Of a stretch of 64,000 bases of DNA, positions 3,740-44,107 are shown piece after piece. The translations under genes and the position numbers were made by a program. The DNA is from Vicinamibacteria bacterium. GTDB taxonomy: Bacteria; Acidobacteriota; Vicinamibacteria; Marinacidobacterales; Marinacidobacteraceae. The stretch lies in NCBI GenBank assembly GCA_963422395.1, contig OY729431.1:2208001-2272000 (forward strand), given 5' to 3'. Under the pieces are notes generated by a model, which saw only the letters and a list, made by a program, of their open reading frames with translations, was not told the origin of the DNA and made no database searches. Position 1 is the first letter of the stretch. Every line of letters starts with the position of its first letter.

Positions 3740-4777
3740 ATGCAGCACCGGATTTCGATCCCGCCGCCGAAGGCGGTTCTGGAGCGCGCAGCGGCGATGG
3801 CCGCACTGCTGCTGGGTGCGCTGTTCGCCGCGCCCGCCGCGTTCGCCCAGACCGGCAGCGAACCCCTTCTGGAAGAGGAGTGGAGGCGCCTCGAACCCCT
3901 CTCGGGAGGACGACTCGGACTGGCCGCCGTCCATCTCGAGACCGGGCGCACCGCATACCTCCACCCGGACGAGCGGTTTCCCATGGCCAGCACCTACAAG
4001 GTGCCGATCGCGGTGGAGCTCCTCCGCCGGGTGGACGAGGGAGAGTTCGGCCTCGACCGGATGGTGGACATCGAGCCTTCCGATCTTTCCCCGGGCAGCG
4101 GGGTGATCAGCCGGTTGCTGGACGACCCCGGCGTTTCGCTCTCGATCCGCAACCTGCTCGAGCTGATGCTGCTCGTCAGCGACAACTCCGCGACCGACAT
4201 CTGCCTGCGGACCGCCGGGGGCAGCGAGCGAGTCACCGAGCGGATGGCCGAGCTGGGGGTCGAGGGAATCCAGGTGGGGCGCTCCACCGCCGACCTGATC
4301 ACCAACTATGTCGGGGCCGAAAATCTGCCGCCGCGCGGCGAGCGGGTCCGCGCCACCTACACGGAGCACTACGAGCAGGTTCCCGACGAAGACCGGGAGC
4401 GGGCCCGCGCCGCCTTCGAAGCTGACCGCCGCGATACCGCCACTCCTCGGGGAATGGCCGAACTGCTGGTCCGCATCTGGAAGGGCGAGGGTCTTGCGGC
4501 GGAAAGCCGCGGCCTGTTGCTCGACATCATGGAGCGCTGCGAGACCGGTGCCGGCCGGCTCAAGGGAAGGCTGCCCCAGGGGACGGTAGTGGCCCACAAG
4601 ACCGGAACCATCGGACGCACCACGAACGATGTGGGGATCATCACGCTTCCGTCGGGAGCGGGCCATCTGGTGGTGGCTGCCTTCGTCGAGGAATCGGACG
4701 AACCGGTGCCGGTCCGGGAAAAAGCCATCGCCGAGGCGGCGCGCGCCGCGCACGACTACTTCCTCTTCGTGCGCTGA
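3740..4777 (+). CDS. Class A beta-lactamase-like serine hydrolase (atypical omega loop)
   Basis: Signal peptide; motifs FPMASTYK (SxxK), SDN, DTATP and HKTG; ATG at 3740 preceded by AGAGG. Confidence 0.85.
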   Translation: MQHRISIPPPKAVLERAAAMAALLLGALFAAPAAFAQTGSEPLLEEEWRRLEPLSGGRLGLAAVHLETGRTAYLHPDERFPMASTYKVPIAVELLRRVDEGEFGLDRMVDIEPSDLSPGSGVISRLLDDPGVSLSIRNLLELMLLVSDNSATDICLRTAGGSERVTERMAELGVEGIQVGRSTADLITNYVGAENLPPRGERVRATYTEHYEQVPDEDRERARAAFEADRRDTATPRGMAELLVRIWKGEGLAAESRGLLLDIMERCETGAGRLKGRLPQGTVVAHKTGTIGRTTNDVGIITLPSGAGHLVVAAFVEESDEPVPVREKAIAEAARAAHDYFLFVR

Positions 4778-34089: not shown

Positions 34090-36294
34090 TCATTGCTTCC
34101 CTGCTTTTGCTGCCTTCTGCCGTGGAATTTCATGGTATCTGCTCAGTCTCCAAGGCCCATTCCCGACTTCAGACACTGCCTGAACGCAAATGTGGACTCG
34201 GCGATACCCTAAATCACCCTCCTTCTTCTTCGCTTCCGGCTTTTCGAAATCGGCCTCCAAGTAGATTCCATCAAAGGAATTGGTGATCTTTACGTTATCC
34301 GCAATATTCCATTTTCCCCCATTTGAATCCGAACATACGGCCACCTTCGGAGCAGTGGTGCGAACTCTTTTACCCCCCTCATCCAAATACTGGCGGTATT
34401 TGATGGTCCTCGCTTTAAAACCAGTGTGGTCATCAGGCACAGTGAGGTCACTTTCGGGGATATCGACTTGCCACACAACGCTCATCATGGTGGGCGTCGA
34501 TGATGAAGAACTGAAGACGCTAGGAGATCTTGGCTTCCCTGGACGGGTTTGTATTTCCTCGTTGTCTTTCGGAACAGACCAATCACTCTCACCGGAGTCG
34601 TTCTCATAGCGCAGACAAAGCAGATACCCAGTGTAGGGCTTGAGGTTGCGATCCATCGTGATTCGAATGTTGTCAACTTGCCTGCTGGTCGGATTCTGGT
34701 CCTTCAACAGCGGACCGGAATCACAGCGATCCTGTATCTCTTTGGTCGAGTCGCCGTTCCTGACTGGATTGGCAACCACCCTGGCCTCATATCCGAAACC
34801 TTTCTTGAGGCTGAATCCACTCCAAGTGATCGCCTTCGTAATCTCATCCTCGATTGTAGGGTCTCCAACTGTCGAGGGGCTAGGAGATGTGATCCCCCAA
34901 GCGAACGACAGGTTCTCGCGGAGATTTTCCGAATTTTTGGTTCGGACGCATAGAAGTTTCTTAACTACCTCACTCTCGCTGATTGTGTACGAGGTCCGGG
35001 TAGGCTTATCACTTTCCCAATCACCACTGACGTCGCAAGTCTCCTTGGAGGGGCGTTGGATCTCGTATTCGGCACCAGGGAGCCGGTCCCAGATCCAGGT
35101 GATGCTGTCCGCTGTGCTCGTCCAGCGGACATTCAGACTCCCCGCACCTTCATCAGGGGTCCGATTCGATCCGCCGCCACCGGAGGGGGCGGTGCCCGTC
35201 GTCGTGCTCGAGACCGTGCTGCTCCAGGCACCCGTCTTCTTCGCGGCGTTGCTGCTGGCCGGGATGGCGCGGATACGGAAACCGTAGTCGGTGCCGCTAT
35301 CCAGGTCGCTCGCCACGCAGCTGGCATCGTCCACTTCGTTGTCCTCGTCTGCACCGCCGCAGCTGGACTCCGCCCAAGAGCTCGTCCCGTCGACTTGCTG
35401 CTCCACTTCGTAGTGATCGGCGCCATCTACTGCTTTCCAAGCGATGGAGATCGAGGTATCGGTCTCGTCACCGGTCAAGAGGCTTTTCGGAGCGGCGAGC
35501 GCCGTGGGCGCGGCGGGCTTCTTCGTCGTCCCCTCGGAGGGTTCCTCCACCCACTCGCCGAAGAGCGGCTCGGTGACCGTCCCCGCCCAGGCGCGAACCC
35601 GCAGGTAGCCGGTGCTGGACCCGGTGAGGTTCGGCACCCGATGCTTCGTATTCTGGGCGCCCGTCAGGATGAATAGCGGGTCGCCGTCTCCGAAGGTCTT
35701 GTCATCGCTGAACTGGACCTGGTAGCCGGCGGCGCCTTCCACTGCTTTCCAGGTCCACTCGATGAAGTCCGAGCCCGTTGCAGAGACCTCGAGCCCGATC
35801 GGCGCCGCCGGCGCGGTGGGCGCAGCAGCGGTCGTCGTGCCCGTCACATGCGTGGACCAAGAGCTGTACACCCGGTCGTCCCCCTCCCCCACGAATGCGC
35901 GCACCCGGAGGTAAGCCTTCGTCTCGGCGGCGATGCCTTCCTTGCGGTACGAAATCTGCTCTGCCGTCCTGGCGACGATTTCGTCTTCGCTGGTGAACGC
36001 TTCGTTGGCGCTGAACTGGACCTGGTAGCCGGCGGCGCCTTCCACCGCTTTCCAGGACCACTCGATGAAGTCGGCTCCGGCGGCGGAGGCCGCGAGCCCG
36101 GTCGGCGCAGCAGGTGCTTCGGGCGCCGGCGGCGTCGGAGTCGGCGGTGCCGGCAGTGTCGGAGTCGTCGGCGTCGGAGTGCTGTCTTCCCCGCAAGCGG
36201 CGATCGAGAAGCCCGCACCGAGGAACAGAACGAGCAGCAGAGCCCAAGAACCCATCCGTCGGGCGGAGAAAAAACCTGCTTCGAGCAACTTCAT
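34090..36294 (-). CDS. Multi-fibronectin type III domain lipoprotein
   Basis: GGAGG upstream; lipobox IAAC; Pro/Thr linker; repeated WxWKAVEGAAGYQVQFS FN3 units; Cys-containing, lower-GC C-terminal region. Confidence 0.85.
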   Translation of the reverse strand: MKLLEAGFFSARRMGSWALLLVLFLGAGFSIAACGEDSTPTPTTPTLPAPPTPTPPAPEAPAAPTGLAASAAGADFIEWSWKAVEGAAGYQVQFSANEAFTSEDEIVARTAEQISYRKEGIAAETKAYLRVRAFVGEGDDRVYSSWSTHVTGTTTAAAPTAPAAPIGLEVSATGSDFIEWTWKAVEGAAGYQVQFSDDKTFGDGDPLFILTGAQNTKHRVPNLTGSSTGYLRVRAWAGTVTEPLFGEWVEEPSEGTTKKPAAPTALAAPKSLLTGDETDTSISIAWKAVDGADHYEVEQQVDGTSSWAESSCGGADEDNEVDDASCVASDLDSGTDYGFRIRAIPASSNAAKKTGAWSSTVSSTTTGTAPSGGGGSNRTPDEGAGSLNVRWTSTADSITWIWDRLPGAEYEIQRPSKETCDVSGDWESDKPTRTSYTISESEVVKKLLCVRTKNSENLRENLSFAWGITSPSPSTVGDPTIEDEITKAITWSGFSLKKGFGYEARVVANPVRNGDSTKEIQDRCDSGPLLKDQNPTSRQVDNIRITMDRNLKPYTGYLLCLRYENDSGESDWSVPKDNEEIQTRPGKPRSPSVFSSSSSTPTMMSVVWQVDIPESDLTVPDDHTGFKARTIKYRQYLDEGGKRVRTTAPKVAVCSDSNGGKWNIADNVKITNSFDGIYLEADFEKPEAKKKEGDLGYRRVHICVQAVSEVGNGPWRLSRYHEIPRQKAAKAGKQ

Positions 36295-36480
36295 GTCACC
36301 TGACCTCCCAGTCGGCACACACGACGCGGGGAGAGCCCCGCGCCTGTCGAGACGCATATCCATATCCAAATCTACCACAGATTCTCGCCGATCGCTACCG
36401 AATATACCCGACACCCGGCACACGATCCGGCACGGTTCCCCGAACGGGAAACACCGCGCAGGCATCAGGCGGGCGTCGAA

Positions 36481-37746
36481 TCAACCCCCTGTCAACACCG
36501 CGGCAATCCGGCCGACGCCCGCGTTCATCAGCGCGTCGATCCGGTCGGCGATGCGCTGCGCGGGTTCGCGGAGCTGCTCGATGGTCCAGTCGGCGGCGTA
36601 GCCCTCGGTCACATCACCAGGCCGGGCGTGGTTCACCAGCCGCTTGGTCAGGGAGCGCGGCAGCAGCAGCTCGCGCTCGGCCACGGTGATGAAGCAGTTG
36701 CGCAGGCCGTGGAACCAGAACCTCGCGCCGCCCGCGCGCCCGATGCGGTCGTAGAGATGGTGCAGCTCTTCGATGTGGCCCGAAGTGCTGGCGGGCGACG
36801 GGAACACCCAGCCGCTCGGCCGTCCCGGGTCCTGCGCCCCCGCCCGGCGCCGCTCGAGGAGATCGGCCAGTTGCCGGGTGATCGGCAGCTCCAGCGGCTC
36901 GCCGGTCTTGGTCTCCTCCACCCGGAAGAGGCGCTCTGCCAGGAACACTCGCTCCCAGCGGAGCGTGAGGATCTCGCCCCGGCGCATCCCCGTGTACAGG
37001 CCGAACAGGAAGATGTCGCGGGTCGCCGGGACGGTCACCTCGGCATCGATCCCCGACCGCCACCGGGGCAGCACCTCGGCCGGGGTGGGGATTCGCCGCC
37101 GCCTCTTGTTGTGGAAACGGCCGCCCCCGGCCAGCCAGAGCTCGACCGGATTGCGCAGACCGTCGTGGTCCACGCACGGCCGGCGGTAGATGGAACGCAA
37201 CAGGGAGATCGTCTGGTTGGCCGCCGCCCATCCGTTCCGCTCGGTGATGCGGTGGAAGCGCGCTTCCACCTCCCGGCGGGTGATCGTGTTCAGAGGCCGC
37301 GCCAGCCAGTCGCCGAGGCAACGGCTCCCATGGCTTCGATCGAGCGCATCGGTGCCCGCCGCGCGGTTGGGGTGGACCGCGAGGTACTCCTCGAACGCTT
37401 CTCCGAGCCTCGGCATCTTCCGCTGCTCGCCGCGCTCGCCCGCCGGATCCTCGCCGGCAGCGGCCCGGCCCAGCAGCTGCCGGGCCATCCGCCTCGCCCG
37501 GTCGGGGGCGAGATGCCCGTAGCGTCCGATGACGATGCGCCGGTTGGGCGCCTTCCGGCCGCCGTCTCCGACGCGGTAGTTGACGAGAAAGGACTTGGCG
37601 CCCGACGGGTGGACCCGCACCCCGAATCCGGTGAGCCGGTCGTCCCAGGCGATCCACGGCTTGGAGGCAGGTTCGAGGGCCTCGACGGCGCGCTTGGTGA
37701 GCGTGATCCGGAGCCGGGCGACTCGTTTCCCGGAGTCCGTGGTCAT
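36481..37746 (-). CDS. Tyrosine recombinase/integrase with N-terminal arm-binding (DUF4102-like) domain
   Basis: LTKRAVEAL...WDDRLTGFGVRVHPSGAKSF arm domain; catalytic R (TGMRRGE), K (TKTG), HGLR, NH and Y (TEGY) all present. Confidence 0.92.
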   Translation of the reverse strand: MTTDSGKRVARLRITLTKRAVEALEPASKPWIAWDDRLTGFGVRVHPSGAKSFLVNYRVGDGGRKAPNRRIVIGRYGHLAPDRARRMARQLLGRAAAGEDPAGERGEQRKMPRLGEAFEEYLAVHPNRAAGTDALDRSHGSRCLGDWLARPLNTITRREVEARFHRITERNGWAAANQTISLLRSIYRRPCVDHDGLRNPVELWLAGGGRFHNKRRRRIPTPAEVLPRWRSGIDAEVTVPATRDIFLFGLYTGMRRGEILTLRWERVFLAERLFRVEETKTGEPLELPITRQLADLLERRRAGAQDPGRPSGWVFPSPASTSGHIEELHHLYDRIGRAGGARFWFHGLRNCFITVAERELLLPRSLTKRLVNHARPGDVTEGYAADWTIEQLREPAQRIADRIDALMNAGVGRIAAVLTGG

Positions 37747-37935
37747 GACGGCCAGCGTACCGACGGACGCCTTCAGGTCAACACGAAACGCAACACGGGC
37801 GAAGACGGCCGGACTTTCAGAGCCCCGCCCGATCGAGAGGATCGCGGCAGAACATCTTCCCAACCGGTTGAAAATACATATATTTTGCGATCCGATCCGA
37901 ATCGCGCCGAGACGAGCCGCCCCTACACGGCGAGG

Positions 37936-38392
37936 TTCTCCTTCTTGCCATGTTCCTGGGCGCGGGACTCGTGCTTTCGGGATGCGGCGATGACGATGCG
38001 CCGGCGACCCCGGCACCGGCTCCGGCCCCGGCCCCAGCTCCGGCACCTGAACCGGAACCGGAGGTTCCGTCGGCGCCGGCGACTCCGAGCGGGCTGATGG
38101 TTTCGGCGACGACGGAGACTTCGGTGACCTACAGCTGGACTGCGGTCGAGGGCGCGGTCGGCTATGCGGTACAGGTGAGCACCGACGAGATTTTCACCGA
38201 TGAGGATGCGGTCGTTGCGACGGTAGAGCCGACCTATACGGTGGCGGATATCGAGCCGGGAGCGACGGTGTATGCGCGGGTAGCGGCAGCAGCGACGGCG
38301 CCGCCGGATGCGGTGCTGAGTGCGTGGTCCACGCATGTGACGGGGACCTCGGACGAGCCGCCGCCGCCGAAGCCGCCGGCCCCGGACCCGGT
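37936..38392 (+). repeat. Left arm of a long inverted repeat (pairs with 42086-42542)
   Basis: Starts TTCTCCTTCTTGCCATGTTCCTGG; ~457 bp colinear with the reverse complement of 42086-42542, about 2 mismatches seen by eye; lower but still high similarity continues to ~38765. Confidence 0.93.
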
Positions 38393-39992
38393 GTCCGTGA
38401 CCTTCTCGCTGGCCGACAGCGCGAAGAACAGGCACCCGATGATTCCGGACGACGGCAAGGACGAGGAGACGGCGATGGCATCGGTGAACCCGGAGCTTTC
38501 GGTGGAGTCGAAGACGGATGTGGTGATCACGCCGATGTTCGTCGAGGGCGCGAGCGGGGTTCAGGTTGCGAAGGGGAGCAACGAGATGCCGTTCGAGAAT
38601 GTGAGCTGGGAGGCGCTGCAGAGCGATGTGGTATCGAAGGGAGTGACCTTCAAGGTGGTTCGGGTCACCCTGGGTGCGAACCAGGAGATGGAGCCGACGG
38701 GAGATGTGGCGTATGTGACCTGCGGTCCGTTCGATTGCGTTGCCGGCGAGGAAGCCCCGGAGATCACGATCGCCGATTCCTCCGCCTGCGAAGGCTGGGA
38801 GCCGACGCTGGAGCTTCAAGTCGGCAAAGTGGACAACGACGGAGTGGGCAAAGACGATGAAGCTGACAAGATGAACGGCTACGACATGGGCTGGCGGTAC
38901 ACCTCGAGCGATACGTTCGATGCGACCCACGAATTCGGATCTTTGATCACAGGAAAGAGCAGCGGAGTCAAGAAGAGCGCTAGCCTGAAGGGACTCCCGA
39001 TGCCGGACAAGATTGGGGCTGCCGTGACTTACGACGCCGACGTCGTCGACGGTGACGACAACTTCGAAAAGCAACAGACGGCGTGTTCCGATCCTTATAA
39101 TGCGACGAAGGCTTCCGGGGTCTTTGAGCCGGAGGAATGTTTCCGTCTCCATACCGCCAGCGATTACCTGTCGGTTTACGAAGTGTCTCTGTCATCGAAG
39201 AGTGCTGGGTTGAGCTACGGCTCGATCGTTTGGGACGAGATCAAAGATCTCTCTTGTGAACCCAAGGTGTTCGCCGCCGCCGATCAGGTGGATGTCTGTG
39301 AACTCTTCGAGGCGGAAGTCGATCAGGCCCACCCTTCGAAGATCAATGTCCAAGGGGTCTTGGATAGCGATAAGACCAAGCTCATGGGCCTCAATCTCGA
39401 CTTCACTGAATCTGGAGTACCTACTTCCGAACGCTACGCGGCCCTTTGGTACCACGATGGTTCGAAGCCCATGAAAGCCGCCCCCAAGAACCTATACAAG
39501 ACCAAAGCTGAAAAATGGACCGAGGGGTTCGTCAACAGGAAAGGCGCGTCGACGTCTCCTGGAGGACGCGATGATGTCTGGATCCGACTGCTCGACAAGG
39601 GCGATGACCCGCTGCCGGAGTATGGCGACCTCGGCAAGGTGGATACGGTTGCCACCAAGGAGGGTGAAGACGACAGAAACAAATCGGATAACCACTCTGG
39701 CTACAGCTGCTCTAGCAAAGATGGCGGTGTTGCTGCGTCGGCAACGTCAACATCGGCAACCTTGGTGGCCGGTGCCTCCCTCTGCGACGCCGAAGATGTC
39801 GAGATCTCAACCAAGGTCGTCTTCACCGACAACTTCGGCAAGCATGCCTGCTCGGTGGAGAAGTCCTACGCCATCACCTGCCAGTGGGACGCGACTGGGC
39901 AATTGGGTAGAAGCAGAGAGGAAGCCCCGAGCGATCTGAGCAAGGATGGTGCCATTGACAGATTCCTTTCTTGCAAGGTGGCAGTTGAGTAA
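37950..39992 (+). CDS. FN3/Cys-rich surface lipoprotein variant B, 5'-truncated (likely silent cassette)
   Basis: N-terminus identical to the 40549..42585 product from LLLAMFLGAG onward but lacks MKQITRKSVPVRGLI; in-frame TGA at 37869 with no ATG/GTG/TTG between it and 37950; ORF otherwise intact. Confidence 0.8.
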   Translation: MFLGAGLVLSGCGDDDAPATPAPAPAPAPAPAPEPEPEVPSAPATPSGLMVSATTETSVTYSWTAVEGAVGYAVQVSTDEIFTDEDAVVATVEPTYTVADIEPGATVYARVAAAATAPPDAVLSAWSTHVTGTSDEPPPPKPPAPDPVSVTFSLADSAKNRHPMIPDDGKDEETAMASVNPELSVESKTDVVITPMFVEGASGVQVAKGSNEMPFENVSWEALQSDVVSKGVTFKVVRVTLGANQEMEPTGDVAYVTCGPFDCVAGEEAPEITIADSSACEGWEPTLELQVGKVDNDGVGKDDEADKMNGYDMGWRYTSSDTFDATHEFGSLITGKSSGVKKSASLKGLPMPDKIGAAVTYDADVVDGDDNFEKQQTACSDPYNATKASGVFEPEECFRLHTASDYLSVYEVSLSSKSAGLSYGSIVWDEIKDLSCEPKVFAAADQVDVCELFEAEVDQAHPSKINVQGVLDSDKTKLMGLNLDFTESGVPTSERYAALWYHDGSKPMKAAPKNLYKTKAEKWTEGFVNRKGASTSPGGRDDVWIRLLDKGDDPLPEYGDLGKVDTVATKEGEDDRNKSDNHSGYSCSSKDGGVAASATSTSATLVAGASLCDAEDVEISTKVVFTDNFGKHACSVEKSYAITCQWDATGQLGRSREEAPSDLSKDGAIDRFLSCKVAVE

Positions 39993-40059
39993 CGACTAGC
40001 AACCTTTGTTCAGGATCCGCAAAGGATGATGTGATCTGCGCCTAGCGGATCCAACGGAG

Positions 40060-40087
40060 CCCCGGGGCCTTCGGGCCCCGGGGTTTT
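40060..40087 (+). terminator. Rho-independent terminator of variant B
   Basis: CCCCGGGGCC-TTCG-GGCCCCGGGG-TTTT. Confidence 0.85.
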
Positions 40088-40460
40088 CGTCTGTACGAAC
40101 TCCAGAGTTCGGTCCCGTCTTCGTCGAATACCCCCGGGATTCGATCTCGGGCGGCAGGAAGGCTGCTGGACACTGGCAATCGAAGCGCTCCAAGCCGCAC
40201 ACCCTGCGCGTCCCCAGATCCCGTTGTGGTGGGCAGTTGCCCAGGGCGTTCGCCAACCCCTCCTGTCCTGCTACTCATCGCTACTCATCGCGCCGCCCGG
40301 TGCGCCGAACAGCGCGGCCCTCAGATCTCCGGCGGGAGAGAAAAGTAGAAGGCCGCCCCAGCAGTGCGCGGCGCAGACCGCACTGCATTGACGCTCGACA
40401 TCCCCTCGGGGAACACCTGCCTCCCGAGGCGGAGTCCGCAGACTCGGGTTCGTACAAAAG

Positions 40461-40489
40461 AAAAACCCCGGGGCCCGAAGGCCCCGGGG
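40461..40489 (-). terminator. Rho-independent terminator of variant A
   Basis: Same stem-loop as 40060-40087, on the opposite strand, followed by a U-run. Confidence 0.85.
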
Positions 40490-40548
40490 CTCCGTTGGAT
40501 CCGCTAGGCGCAGATCACATCATCCTTCGCGGATCCGAAAACGAGGGT

Positions 40549-42585
40549 CTAGTTACTCACCTTGCAAGTGAGGAATTTGCTGATGTCGTCGGAGGACAGC
40601 TTATCGGCAGGATCTTTTCCTCTTCCAATGCCCGTCTCGCCGCTGGCATCCCAGTCGCAGGTGATGGTGTACGACTTCTCGACCGAGCAGGCTTTCTTGA
40701 AGTTGTCGGTGAAAGTGATCTTGGTCTCGATCTCGACATCCTCGGCGTCGCAGAGAGTGCCGTCGGTCTTGTCTTTCCCGGATTTGGCCTCGCCGCCATC
40801 GTCAGCGCTGCAAACCCGTGCGTCGTCGCCTTCTTCAAAATTCTCCGCCGTGTCGTCTCCACTGGGATCGGCATCTACCTTTCCGAGATCGCCGTAGAGC
40901 GGGTCGCCGTCCTTGTCCAGCAACGGGACCCAGACGGTGCCGCGGTCGCGTGCTTCATCTCCGGTTCTCTTGGCAACCATGCCTTGGTTGTCACCGTCCG
41001 CATAGAGATCCATGGGAGCTTTCTTCATATCATTCGATCCATCGTGGTACCAAAGGGCGGTATAGCGTTCCCCGGAAGCATCACCGAAATCGAGATCGAG
41101 GCCTACAAGCCTCGACGAGGTCGAGTTGGTGCCTACGAATCCCTTGACTTCGATCTTCGATGGATGGGCCTGATCGACTTCCGCCTCGAAGAGTTCGCAG
41201 ACATCCACCTGGTCGGCGGCCGCGAACGACACGGGCTCACAGTCGATACTCTTGAACTCATCCCACGCGATATTGCCGTATTTCACTCCGGCGCCGCTCG
41301 GCGACAGGGACACCTGGTAGGCCGACAGGTAATCCATGTCGGTGTGGAGACGGAAACAGGTTTCCGGCTCACGGAGGTCGGAAGCCTTCGCGCCGGTGTA
41401 AGTCGCACACGCCGACTCGTGCTCGTCGTTGGTGTCGTTATCCTCGGTGGCGTCGTAAGTCACGGCTTTCCCGATCGTGTCCGGCATCGGGAATCCCTTG
41501 GCACTCTTGCTCTTTCCGACCTTGCTGCTCTTTCCGTTGACGAACGGCCCGAAGTCATGGGTCGCGTCGAACTGGACATTTGCCGTGTAGGTCCAACCCA
41601 TGTCGTAGCCGTCCTTTACTCCATTCGAGTCGTCTTTGCCGTCGTTGTCCACCATGCCGACTTGGAGCGTCAGCGTCGGGTCCCAGGCTTCGCAAGCCGC
41701 CGAGTTGGAGATTCCGATCTCCGGGGCATCCTCGCCGGCAACACACTCGAACGGACCGCAGGTCACATACGACATATCGCCCGTCGGCTCTGCCTCCTGG
41801 TTTGCACCCACGGTGACCCGTACCACCTTGAAGGTCACTCCCTTCGATACCACATCGCTCTGCAGCGCCTCCCAGCTCACATTCTCGAACGGCATGTTGC
41901 TCCCCTTCGAAACCTGAACCCCGCTCGCGCCCTCGACGAACATCGGCGTGATCAACGCATCCGTCTTCGACTCCACCGAAAGCTCCGGGTTCACCGATGC
42001 CATCGCCGTCGCCTTGCTCTTGCCGTCGTCCGGCACCATCGGATGCGCGTTCTTCGCTCCGTCAGCCAGCGAGAAGGTCACGGATACCGGGTCCGGGGCC
42101 GGCGGCTTCGGCGGCGGCGGCTCGTCCGATGTCCCCGTCACATGCGTGGACCACGCACTCAGCACCGCATCCGGCGGCGCCGTCGCTGCTGCCGCTACCC
42201 GCGCATACACCGTCGCTCCCGGCTCGATATCCGCCACCGTATAGGTCGGCTCTACCGTCGCAACGACCGCATCCTCATCGGTGAAAATCTCGTCGGTGCT
42301 CACCTGTACCGCATAGCCGACCGCGCCCTCGACCGCAGTCCAGCTGTAGGTCACCGAAGTCTCCGTCGTCGCCGAAACCATCAGCCCGCTCGGAGTGGCC
42401 GGCGCCGACGGAACCTCCGGTTCCGGTTCAGGTGCCGGAGCTGGGGCCGGGGCCGGAGCCGGTGCCGGGGTCGCCGGCGCATCGTCATCGCCGCATCCCG
42501 AAAGCACGAGTCCCGCGCCCAGGAACATGGCAAGAAGGAGAATCAGTCCCCGTACAGGGACCGATTTCCTTGTGATCTGCTTCAT
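40549..42585 (-). CDS. FN3/Cys-rich surface lipoprotein variant A, complete (likely expressed copy)
   Basis: AGGAGG RBS, ATG at 42585, signal MKQITRKSVPVRGLILLLAMFLGAGLVLSGC (lipobox), PA-rich linker, FN3 domain, acidic Cys-rich body. Confidence 0.88.
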   Translation of the reverse strand: MKQITRKSVPVRGLILLLAMFLGAGLVLSGCGDDDAPATPAPAPAPAPAPAPEPEPEVPSAPATPSGLMVSATTETSVTYSWTAVEGAVGYAVQVSTDEIFTDEDAVVATVEPTYTVADIEPGATVYARVAAAATAPPDAVLSAWSTHVTGTSDEPPPPKPPAPDPVSVTFSLADGAKNAHPMVPDDGKSKATAMASVNPELSVESKTDALITPMFVEGASGVQVSKGSNMPFENVSWEALQSDVVSKGVTFKVVRVTVGANQEAEPTGDMSYVTCGPFECVAGEDAPEIGISNSAACEAWDPTLTLQVGMVDNDGKDDSNGVKDGYDMGWTYTANVQFDATHDFGPFVNGKSSKVGKSKSAKGFPMPDTIGKAVTYDATEDNDTNDEHESACATYTGAKASDLREPETCFRLHTDMDYLSAYQVSLSPSGAGVKYGNIAWDEFKSIDCEPVSFAAADQVDVCELFEAEVDQAHPSKIEVKGFVGTNSTSSRLVGLDLDFGDASGERYTALWYHDGSNDMKKAPMDLYADGDNQGMVAKRTGDEARDRGTVWVPLLDKDGDPLYGDLGKVDADPSGDDTAENFEEGDDARVCSADDGGEAKSGKDKTDGTLCDAEDVEIETKITFTDNFKKACSVEKSYTITCDWDASGETGIGRGKDPADKLSSDDISKFLTCKVSN
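42086..42542 (-). repeat. Right arm of a long inverted repeat (pairs with 37936-38392)
   Basis: Reverse complement matches the left arm; the outer boundary falls within the signal-peptide coding sequence. Confidence 0.93.
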
Positions 42586-43056
42586 TTCGCCTACCTCCTG
42601 TAGGGCGTGTTGGGACAGGACAAAGGCCCGATGGGGGCCCAGCACCGTCTCATGTATTTCATTCCTACCTCCGGTAGGACAGGGTGGCGTCGCTACGATT
42701 TCGCACCGGGCCGACCGTGCGGAGAGTATAGGCACGGCGGCTTGGAGAGGCAATATGCCAAACATGCGGAATCCCGAAGCCAGCACCTCCCGCACAGCGG
42801 GTGGGGGAGCTCGGGGCGAACATTCCCGTGAACTCCATCACATCGGAACGGCGATTGTCAAGGTGCCGTCCGGCCCGTGGGGAGGGCATGGAAGCCGGGC
42901 ATGAGGGGTGGGAGCGGATCTGCGGGGGCGGCCGACCACCGCGAGCCGGTCATCACCCCCGGTCCTGCCTTCGACTCATGCCAGCCGAACGCACGCACGA
43001 GAGCTGGACTCGAAGACCCGTCGAAGACCCCGTTCTCCGGGAGAACCGGAGCCGCC

Positions 43057-43130
43057 TCGGGGCGGCAGGATTTGAACCTGCGACCCCCTGATCCCGAACC
43101 AGGTGCTCTGCCAGACTGAGCCACGCCCCG
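43057..43130 (-). tRNA. tRNA-Pro (CGG)
   Basis: CGGGGCGTGGCTCAGTCTGGCAGAGC...CCTGG-TTCGGGA-TCAGG...GGTTCAAATCC; CCA not encoded. Confidence 0.95.
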
Positions 43131-43224
43131 GCGGCGGAAGAGATTGTAGCGACGGGGATTCGACGGTCCCGAAGCGAGCGCCCCGCCCGGACCGCGCTCG
43201 TCGGAATCGGCTGCCCGGGGCGGT

Positions 43225-43301
43225 TGGTCGGGACGGCCGGATTTGAACCGACGACCACTTGCACCCCAAGCAAGTGCGCTACCAGACTGCGCCACGTCCC
43301 G
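43225..43301 (-). tRNA. tRNA-Pro (GGG)
   Basis: CGGGACGTGGCGCAGTCTGGTAGCGC...CTTGC-TTGGGGT-GCAAG...GGTTCAAATCC...CCA. Confidence 0.95.
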
Positions 43302-43366
43302 ACGGGTCCCGGCCGACCCGGCCGGCGTGTTCCCCTGTGGGGCCTTCGAGATTCTAATCGGGCGGT

Positions 43367-43879
43367 CTAATCGGGGCGGTCGTCCAGGAGCCGGGCCAAC
43401 GTACGGTCGTTCTCTTCCATCAGGTCGAGCGCCTCGCGGAGGCGGCGGCGGTCCTCCGAAGACAGCCTCGGGACCGCCGGCGCCGCGTCCGGCATCGGCG
43501 CCGGGTTTCGAGAAGCTTCCGGGGATGGGCGCGCAGGGACCGCGGGATTCCGCAGCGAAGGCGAAGGAGCGGGCGATTGGGAACCGGCGCGCCGCTGGCG
43601 GCCCTTCCGCGCCTCCCGCCGCTTCTCCGACAGCAGCCGGCGCGCTCCGGCGGTGGTGTACCCGTCGCGGTGCAGGAGGCGCTGGATTTCCTGCACCATC
43701 TCGATGTCTTCCCGGCGATAGAGGCGTTGGCCGGCGTCGTTCTTCTTCGGGCTCAGCGTCGGGAACTCCATCTCCCAGTGCCGAAGGGTGTACGGCTGGA
43801 CTCCGGTGAGCTCGCTGACCTCGCCGATGCGGAAATAGAGCTTGTCGGGGATGGCGGGGCGGGCTGCTTCACCGGTCAT
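43367..43879 (-). CDS. MerR family transcriptional regulator
   Basis: IPDKLYFRIGEVSELTGVQPYTLRHWE...GQRLYRREDI; the type commonly found upstream of tRNA-Pro(GGG). Confidence 0.9.
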   Translation of the reverse strand: MTGEAARPAIPDKLYFRIGEVSELTGVQPYTLRHWEMEFPTLSPKKNDAGQRLYRREDIEMVQEIQRLLHRDGYTTAGARRLLSEKRREARKGRQRRAGSQSPAPSPSLRNPAVPARPSPEASRNPAPMPDAAPAVPRLSSEDRRRLREALDLMEENDRTLARLLDDRPD

Positions 43880-44107
43880 CGCCAGGACCCGCACTCGATG
43901 CTTTCGGGCAGGGGCTGCGACGAACGGAAGAAGGGGGCGAGGCACAGCATGGAAACGAGAGCGCGCCCGGTGCGCCGATCGCCAGCGGGGAAACCGGGGA
44001 CCACTGCGAGATCCGCCTCGTTCAAGGTTTCGTCCGTTTCGCTCTTCCCCCGGCCGATTCGGGGATGGAGACAGCCTGATTCTACGGCAGATTCTGCGGC
44101 GGGCAGA

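Follow-up and report, generated by a model that had tools for sequence, protein, structure and literature searches.

A candidate inversion switch for a surface lipoprotein in a Vicinamibacteria genome

Can a lipoprotein gene that has no start of its own still be put to use? The question is raised by a locus of Vicinamibacteria bacterium (GenBank assembly GCA_963422395.1), located in a stretch of 64,000 nucleotides (nt) of contig OY729431.1 (positions 2,208,001 to 2,272,000), which we refer to as the window. The genome around it is 2.9 Mb long, assembled as one single contig, with a GC content of 68.4%. Two convergent lipoprotein genes, here called cassette L and gene (or cassette) R, lie between long inverted repeats, and the gene of a tyrosine recombinase stands next to the left repeat (Table 1). 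An initial annotation had interpreted the locus as an invertible switch with one expressed and one silent cassette. After comparison with related genomes, we consider it moderately probable that the locus constitutes a two-cassette, single-expression-site, site-specific inversion switch for a surface lipoprotein. The architecture is as that annotation described it and the comparative data strongly support site-specific recombination, while the inversion itself is unobserved.

Only one of the two genes has a complete start. Gene R possesses an AGGAGG ribosome-binding site (RBS), an ATG codon and the N-terminus MKQITRKSVPVRGLI, and the repeat begins within its codon 16. In cassette L, an in-frame TGA is found at 37869 and no ATG, GTG or TTG occurs between it and 37950. 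The first ATG of the cassette is the Met20 codon of gene R, preceded by a pyrimidine run (TTCTCCTTCTTGCC) and not by an RBS. The earlier statements that the right copy alone is joined to an RBS, an ATG and about 15 codons, and that the left copy starts in the middle of the signal peptide, are borne out by these features. A bacterial lipoprotein signal peptide has a charged n-region followed by an h-region and a lipobox whose last residue is Cys. By inspection, gene R contains all three (MKQITRKSVPVRGLILLLAMFLGAGLVLSG followed by C), while cassette L retains only MFLGAGLVLSG followed by C.

The arms that enclose the cassettes are 647 nt each and 97% complementary according to the repeat finder, which is far above chance. 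In the MAFFT alignment, the outer 457 nt (37936-38392) contain only two mismatches (38081/42397 and 38348/42130) and are thus 99.6% identical, in agreement with the approximately 457-bp repeats first proposed as the boundaries of the segment 37936-42542. Further inward the identity falls to about 92–98%, then 78–94% and then 60–75%. A second inverted repeat of 75 nt (99%) lies directly 3' of both stop codons and contains a terminator-like hairpin for each cassette. Both open reading frames (ORFs), of 680 and 679 amino acids, are intact, so that the description of two convergent variants with their own terminators holds. The junctions of the arms with the leader and with the integrase flank were both seen again in contigs of three public runs. 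The repeat is therefore real and not an artefact of this one assembly. The integrase-proximal flank and the expression-site flank do not have a single 9-mer in common. The former presumably contains the integrase promoter.

The two cassettes encode related proteins with divergent C-terminal parts. The first 147 aligned codons give identical residues, while the variable part shows a dS of 0.64 and a dN/dS of 0.42, with 13 of 13 internal indels in frame. The ratio and the in-frame indels indicate that the copy without a start is under protein-level selection, which would fit periodic expression; judged by these values, both cassettes are under purifying selection. The FN3 domain that had been assigned to the cassettes does not reach the Pfam threshold: the fn3 score is 21.9–22.3 bits for both (E about 2e-4), short of the cut-off of 25, and we describe the domain as FN3-like only. 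This weak match was the only one in searches of Pfam and NCBIfam, and an Atlas search gave no usable match. The AlphaFold model of the variable part is confident (pLDDT 82.4) and mostly beta, with no convincing solved neighbour in the PDB (TM no higher than 0.23). Cys residues are conserved among 35 cassette homologues, and the modelled product is probably an exposed, disulfide-bonded lipoprotein.

The evidence for a dedicated recombination site comes from the outer edge of the arms, a region of about 45 nt which we call S. We used a query of 118 nt of leader and 73 nt of arm to search 28 genomes of the same taxonomic family, and 70 rows were returned. Of these, 27 begin precisely where the arm does, at query base 119, and 7 more begin within 17 nt of it. 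Across 31 distinct copies, the most frequent base makes up a fraction of 0.32–0.45 at positions -5 to -1 and of 0.81–1.00 at positions 0 to +45. Third codon positions are as conserved (0.81–1.0) up to +43 and fall to 0.48–0.74 thereafter, and the conserved codons include CTT and GGT, counter to the 68% GC of the genome. Upstream homology stops at one and the same nucleotide in all 31 copies, which come from several genera. At least six unrelated classes of upstream flank meet S at this nucleotide, and two alleles of S were found with every class. Third-position conservation, together with the joining of different flanks at a single nucleotide, is the pattern expected of a site-specific recombination site, and neither coding constraint nor simple duplication would yield it. 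The proposal of a crossover within the arms is thereby supported as to site-specific recombination, with the site narrowed from the whole 457 nt to the outer 45 or so. A hairpin at 42541-42566 beside S was considered as part of the site and rejected, as by eye it is not conserved in the leaders of relatives. The genome of the window contains exactly two copies of S, inverted to each other.

The distribution of S among the relatives separates one expression site from a number of leaderless copies. In genus g2, exactly one row covers both leader and arm in 13 of 16 genomes, with a leader identity of 79–84%. The expression site adjoins a tRNA-Pro(CGG) gene in 10 of 10 loci, about 350–550 nt away on the upstream side of the leader match. 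Leaderless copies are associated with the integrase: in our tally, 18 of 34 lie 140–330 nt from the divergent start of an orthologous integrase gene, and 4 further ones adjoin a second, distantly related integrase. Orthologues (64–73% identity), scored as present by a match at E 1e-40, occur in 18 of the 28 genomes, often several per genome. A leaderless copy was found in 16 of these 18; G004 has one by other comparisons, and G041, which is 66% complete, has none. The 10 genomes that lack an integrase match gave leaderless-like matches in two cases only, G006 and G010, both weak; in G022, inspection of the locus revealed a frameshifted integrase remnant. In 27 mapped integrase loci, the orthologues adjoin cassettes.

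The orientation of these copies is uniform. On large contigs, 9 of 9 copies adjacent to an integrase of the window's type are inverted relative to the expression site of their own genome (G000, G042, G014, G005, G007 twice, G018 twice and G024), at a spacing of 4.6 kb to 1.6 Mb; two of the integrases look damaged. Convergent pairs with long arms are present in G004 (299 nt at 100% and 828 nt at 96%), G018 (1238 nt at 100%) and G007, where S is kept although the arms are just 85–88% identical. Arm identity decays with the distance from S in three genomes.

The candidate invertase is a lambda/P4-like integrase with an N-terminal arm-binding domain. It matches Pfam Arm-DNA-bind_3 (PF13356, E 1.6e-15) and Phage_integrase (PF00589, E 1.2e-12, 48.4 bits, with the cut-off at 27.1). 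Tyrosine recombinases have the catalytic pattern R-K-H-R-H/W-Y. Among 22 relatives, R255, H346, R349, H373 and Y383 are invariant and K280 is nearly so. A profile of the relatives matches lambda Int (1z1b, E 1.9e-7) and a CP4-like arm domain (3jtz, E 0.0054), and the R, K and HxxR motifs align with TGQRVGD, SKTG and FHELR of lambda Int. The catalytic Tyr lies past the end of the lambda Int alignment and was assigned from the conserved EGY motif. The gene starts 189 nt from the left arm, as expected from the earlier claim of a complete recombinase beside it.

These elements would combine into the following switch. A fixed unit beside tRNA-Pro(CGG) would supply the promoter, leader, RBS, ATG and 15 codons that encode the charged n-region. 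Each cassette would supply the h-region, lipobox, linker, FN3-like domain, a variable, beta-rich part of about 520 residues and a terminator. The integrase would recombine the two inverted copies of S, each of which occupies h-region and lipobox codons where the arm meets its outer flank. This would flip the interior of about 4.6 kb, with the leader and the integrase flank staying in place, and would link the fixed unit in frame to the second cassette. Both copies of S have the same codon phase, so the reading frame would be kept. The products would again be a leader/S and a flank/S junction, which would make the switch reversible without a directionality factor. Action of the integrase on S, inversion often enough to be useful and export of the fused copy only are inferences from this arrangement. 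The near-identical arms would most simply reflect conversion tracts that start at S, as they are only 0.4% divergent compared with a cassette dS of 0.64 and their identity decays with distance.

Table 1. Features of the lipoprotein locus, in window coordinates.
Feature	Position	Strand	Description
Lipoprotein gene R, leader-bearing	40549-42588	-	679 aa; LSGC lipobox, PA/PE linker, FN3-like domain, ~520-aa beta-rich variable part
Leaderless cassette L	37950-39992	+	680 codons, intact; starts at Met20 equivalent; without RBS and n-region
Left inverted-repeat arm	37936-38582	+	Repeat finder and MAFFT alignment
Right inverted-repeat arm	41896-42542	-	Repeat finder and MAFFT alignment; site S at 42498-42542
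Left copy of site S, proposed crossover region	37936-37980	+	TTCTCCTTCTTGCCATGTTCCTGGG...TCGGG; ~45 nt
Tyrosine recombinase, lambda/P4-like integrase, putative invertase	36481-37746	-	421 aa; N-terminal arm-binding domain
Integrase-proximal unique flank	37747-37935	.	AT-rich stretch; promoter-like match 37857-37884 (+)
Fixed expression unit outside repeat	42543-42655	-	Conserved leader, RBS AGGAGG (42597-42602), ATG 42588, codons 1-15
Promoter-like site upstream of leader	42725-42753	-	TTGCCT-17-TATACT; consensus match only
tRNA-Pro(CGG), conserved neighbour marking expression site	43057-43130	-	ARAGORN/Rfam
3' conserved block, cassette L terminator hairpin	40013-40087	+	Terminator-like site 40069-40083
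3' conserved block, cassette R terminator hairpin	40462-40536	-	Hairpin 40493..40462, 14 pairs then T run
Paralogous FN3-repeat lipoprotein gene downstream of integrase	34090-36465	-	Own signal peptide; context, outside the switch

To look for the flipped form, we identified nine public runs, seven available as Logan contigs (six of which contain all or part of the stretch) and two, linked by sample or study, as raw Hi-C reads; no long-read library is on record. The contigs end at 42513/42542 and the 457-nt arm contig stands alone. Because the contigs break at the arms, a flank cannot be linked to a cassette and the orientation is unreadable. The raw Hi-C run X7 has 0 reads on the stretch and is uninformative on orientation. 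Runs X1, X2, X6 and X7 were compared over the right half only (40100-43400). In run X1 the leader, arm and terminator block are present and the variable part of gene R is absent, while in run X6 this part is mosaic. The word depth of run X2 is about 22 in the leader flank and 9–12 in the variable part. Together, runs X1, X2 and X6 suggest heterogeneity or turnover of cassettes at the strain level. No cassette was found in both contexts across the related genomes: the best mixed pairs of leader-bearing and leaderless copies are 72–73% identical, too distant to serve as proof of switching.

In several relatives, S borders a different kind of structure. A unit of about 8.4 kb in G024 (L030:7639-16128), also seen at loci L036, L037, L039, L045, L048 and L130, contains a lipoprotein cassette, an integrase of the window's type, a MobA/VirD2-like relaxase (Pfam E 1.3e-7) and, directly beside S, another arm-domain integrase. 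Its ends are direct copies of S, with a leader/S junction on one side and a junction of S with the flank of the second integrase on the other. Direct-repeat units occur in G024, G023, G017, G016 and G020, and G022 has a decayed copy, with frameshifted integrase and relaxase remnants behind the expressed cassette. The unit resembles a mobilizable element that, by inserting into S, takes the place of the expressed cassette. As the same S flanks a relaxase-carrying element in direct repeat, inversion is not the only use of the site. The window differs from such units, in which a relaxase and integrases lie between direct repeats of S: here S is inverted, and no relaxase homologue was found anywhere in the genome. 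A search of the same genome revealed no att-like duplicate of either end of tRNA-Pro, and we rejected a tRNA-integrated island as an explanation for the window on this ground. With two inverted copies of S only and no relaxase, inversion is the only intramolecular outcome available in this genome. It is possible, though on balance doubtful, that S is a shared attachment site for horizontally spreading arm-domain integrases. Resident inverted modules would then flip variants, and relaxase elements would insert, capture the promoter and the 15 codons and silence the resident cassette.

A number of observations weigh against an inversion switch. No flipped molecule was seen in the contigs, a protein that fuses the leader to cassette L was not found in the protein collections (the best homologue of cassette L is 57% identical), and a search of metagenome contigs for the exact leader/S junction gave 0 matches. 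No dyad-symmetric core was recognised within S. Cassette L keeps the Met20 ATG and has a promoter-like match upstream on its own strand (37857-37884). The integrase family is, by comparison of its loci, not specific to cassette switching. Integrases 63–73% identical to that of the window occur in metagenome-assembled genomes titled Alphaproteobacteria, Rhodospirillales, Binatia, Thermodesulfobacteriota and Gammaproteobacteria, which suggests cross-phylum transfer, and their loci (L049-L128) contain neither S nor a cassette. In a FastTree tree of 103 integrases, from which matches of less than 380 residues, matches with stops and duplicates were left out, the f1-family integrases form one clade (27 rows, SH-like support 99) and the integrase of the window branches just outside it. 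One sublineage inside this clade, comprising 11 rows and never adjacent to the site, belongs to the relaxase-carrying unit, where it lies downstream of the cassette. Finally, the related genomes are not independent samples owing to their kinship, so that the counts overstate significance and describe a pattern rather than a statistical test.

Four alternative explanations were weighed. The arms could be inverted by RecA-type homologous recombination anywhere in their 457–647 nt, as in Campylobacter fetus sap, with the integrase as a bystander. Long arms that are 99.6% identical over 457 nt are good substrates, gradual inward decay is expected of conversion tracts, and S lacks a recognised recombinase core. 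We nevertheless regard this as distinctly unlikely, as it leaves unexplained the third-position conservation of about 45 nt and the one-nucleotide break in 31 copies, the pair in G007 that keeps S between arms of 85–88% identity, the co-occurrence and adjacency of the integrase, and the two mismatches that persist in the arms. The locus might instead be a static relic, left by the integration of a cassette-carrying element or by a rearranged duplication, without meaningful switching today. The relaxase-carrying unit bordered by S in direct repeat in relatives, the remnants behind the expressed cassette of G022, the lack of orientation heterogeneity in contigs (which break at the arms) and the tendency of high GC to keep spurious ORFs open are all consistent with a relic. 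It remains an unlikely explanation given that the genome has neither a relaxase homologue nor a duplicate of the tRNA end, that its only two copies of S are inverted while simple integration yields direct repeats, and that the integrase is intact. The 13 of 13 in-frame indels and the dN/dS of 0.42, the recent exchange indicated by arms 99.6% identical against a cassette dS of 0.64, and the inverted arrangement of 9 of 9 integrase-adjacent sites likewise oppose it.

S might also serve chiefly for the exchange of cassettes, through circular units that are integron-like or part of a mobilizable element, in which case the window would show one frozen outcome. This is suggested by the direct-repeat units of the five genomes, by leaderless copies of S next to two different types of integrase, and by cassettes 84–86% identical that lie beside different integrase types in different genomes; the strains of other runs, too, keep the leader, arm and terminator while the variable part of gene R is absent or varied. 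Such a main role is improbable for this locus, where the two inverted sites allow only inversion intramolecularly, neither a circular form nor an empty site was observed and the genome has no relaxase. Independent expression of both copies would require cassette L to be transcribed from the promoter-like match and translated from ATG 37950 with the short signal peptide MFLGAGLVLSGC. The match is on the correct strand, the in-frame ATG is followed by an intact lipobox and the cassette is under purifying selection. Against this stand the missing Shine-Dalgarno sequence and the pyrimidine run before the ATG, the absence of a charged n-region from the peptide, and the equivalent codon in many relatives, which is GTG within ACCGTGACC. 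The sequence upstream is not the conserved leader in 23 of 31 copies and falls into several unrelated flank classes, and promoter-like matches barely exceed chance here (2 sites found, 0.8 expected). We consider this alternative very unlikely. The inversion switch at S thus remains our preferred reading of the locus.

Other features of the surroundings complete the picture. The paralogous lipoprotein gene downstream of the integrase passes the fn3 cut-off of 25 with 54.8 bits, and it shares 43% identity with gene R in the N-terminal part. It contains direct repeats (35706-35834 and 36009-36137, 82%, 303-nt spacing) that correspond to tandem FN3 units. Both cassettes and this gene have a GC content of 60–61%, compared with 71% for the integrase gene and 68.4% for the genome. 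Long antisense frames lie open over real genes, for example 40237-42603 on the plus strand with 788 amino acids. Such frames result from the high GC content, and the length of an ORF by itself therefore says little here. An Rfam search of 36000-44000 revealed nothing besides two tRNAs. Elsewhere in the window, at 3960-4036, ARAGORN predicts a tRNA-Cys with the anticodon ACA, which is unusual for tRNA-Cys.

Beyond the window, the lipoprotein family is expanded in the taxonomic family; the unpublished genome G033 was counted in this tally only and no claim depends on it. Some genomes without the integrase have multiple leader-bearing copies instead: G012 (L026:6284-16213) has five cassette genes in tandem, and G003 and G008 show two to three leader matches. 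These would represent an alternative strategy of independently expressed paralogues. A genome often has more than one of the cross-phylum integrases, in some cases in tandem pairs of about 80% identity (for example L084, L089, L091, L116). At the alphaproteobacterial loci L116, L121, L122 and L128, a complete lipoprotein gene (MKFHKNKFLTT...AVGAC) lies divergently about 120 nt upstream of the integrase, which may be a parallel association of the integrase family with lipoproteins. Inverted repeats near integrase relatives of other phyla were considered as switches at L059 and L101 and rejected, as no lipoprotein cassette is present at the arms: those of L059 are copies of one transposase-like ORF, named by inspection, and L101 has a large ORF between its arms.

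How does the proposed switch compare with known systems? In Campylobacter fetus sap and the R64 shufflon, inversion between conserved 5' regions places alternative C-terminal or whole-protein variants at one promoter. The sap inversion is largely RecA-dependent and flips a promoter segment, and in the shufflon, Rci permutes C-terminal pilV segments at 19-bp sites. Neither is known to have its site in signal-peptide codons. Integrative mobilizable elements and integrons have an integrase divergent from the attachment site and express cassettes from a resident promoter. The window differs in its inverted sites, the lack of a relaxase and a site inside an ORF that would result in a protein fusion, and no attC-like element was identified in it. 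The slp, sap and shufflon systems had been named as analogues by the initial annotation. The concept is indeed known, but they are looser parallels than Mycoplasma vsa and vpma and the Bacteroides susC shufflon with its 5' swap.

Programmed single-expression-site switching of surface lipoproteins is best known from Mycoplasma, and a related 5' swap occurs in Bacteroides transporters. The closest functional analogue is the vsa system of M. pulmonis. As described in the introduction of PMC2268961, vsa/HvsR comprises lipoproteins, a single site with promoter, RBS and 5' coding part, and silent genes without that part; a nearby tyrosine recombinase inverts site-specifically and fuses the fixed 5' part to another body. 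The fixed part of vsa has 714 nt of coding sequence and serves many cassettes, in contrast to 15 codons and two cassettes in the window. Particular to the window are the proposed crossover in h-region codons, the lambda/P4-type arm domain and unrelated proteins in an unrelated phylum. The vpma/Xer1 system of M. agalactiae and the vsp system of M. bovis have one promoter, several lipoprotein genes, an adjacent, required tyrosine recombinase and terminators, but recombination takes place in the 5' untranslated region (-1 to -72), so that whole ORFs are moved (PMC2268961). In the window the site lies within the ORF, which would give a translational fusion.

The susC-like shufflon of B. thetaiotaomicron (BT1040/BT1042/BT1046, with BT1041) comes from a didermic bacterium, as does the locus described here. 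It has one gene with a full 5' end, other genes that are 5'-truncated, a tyrosine recombinase in the locus and recombination in the 5' coding region, narrowed to 7 bp (bioRxiv 10.1101/521070). Its cargo consists of operons of TonB-dependent transporters under an ECF sigma factor, and PCR and a recombinase mutant verified the switch (bioRxiv 10.1101/521070). The candidate switch of the window has a lipoprotein as cargo, with the site in the signal peptide. In Ureaplasma parvum mba, inversion at inverted repeats produces chimeric lipoprotein genes and switches the expressed paralogue, with other proteins and other repeats (PMC3047005). The main-text passages of a survey of gene-altering inversions include no Acidobacteria, and lipoproteins only as SusD/RagB (PMC9881135). 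Our literature search on Acidobacteria or Acidobacteriota with phase variation or DNA inversion found no relevant report.

The logic of the switch is thus known. The novelty lies in the phylum, the cargo, the recombinase type and the site in signal-peptide codons, together with a probable link of S to a mobilizable element. If confirmed, the locus would be a case of an arm-domain integrase of the lambda/P4 type acting as an invertase. A recombination site could then sit in signal-peptide codons, with a promoter and 15 codons common to interchangeable bodies, and one such site would also serve a mobilizable element. If S is a shared attachment site, the identity of the surface antigen would be both phase-variable and transferable between cells by means of a translational-fusion attachment site. 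Confirmation of the switch would mean that surface variation is programmed in uncultured, small-genome bacteria of the Acidobacteria type, and would hint at phages, grazers or a host as the source of pressure.

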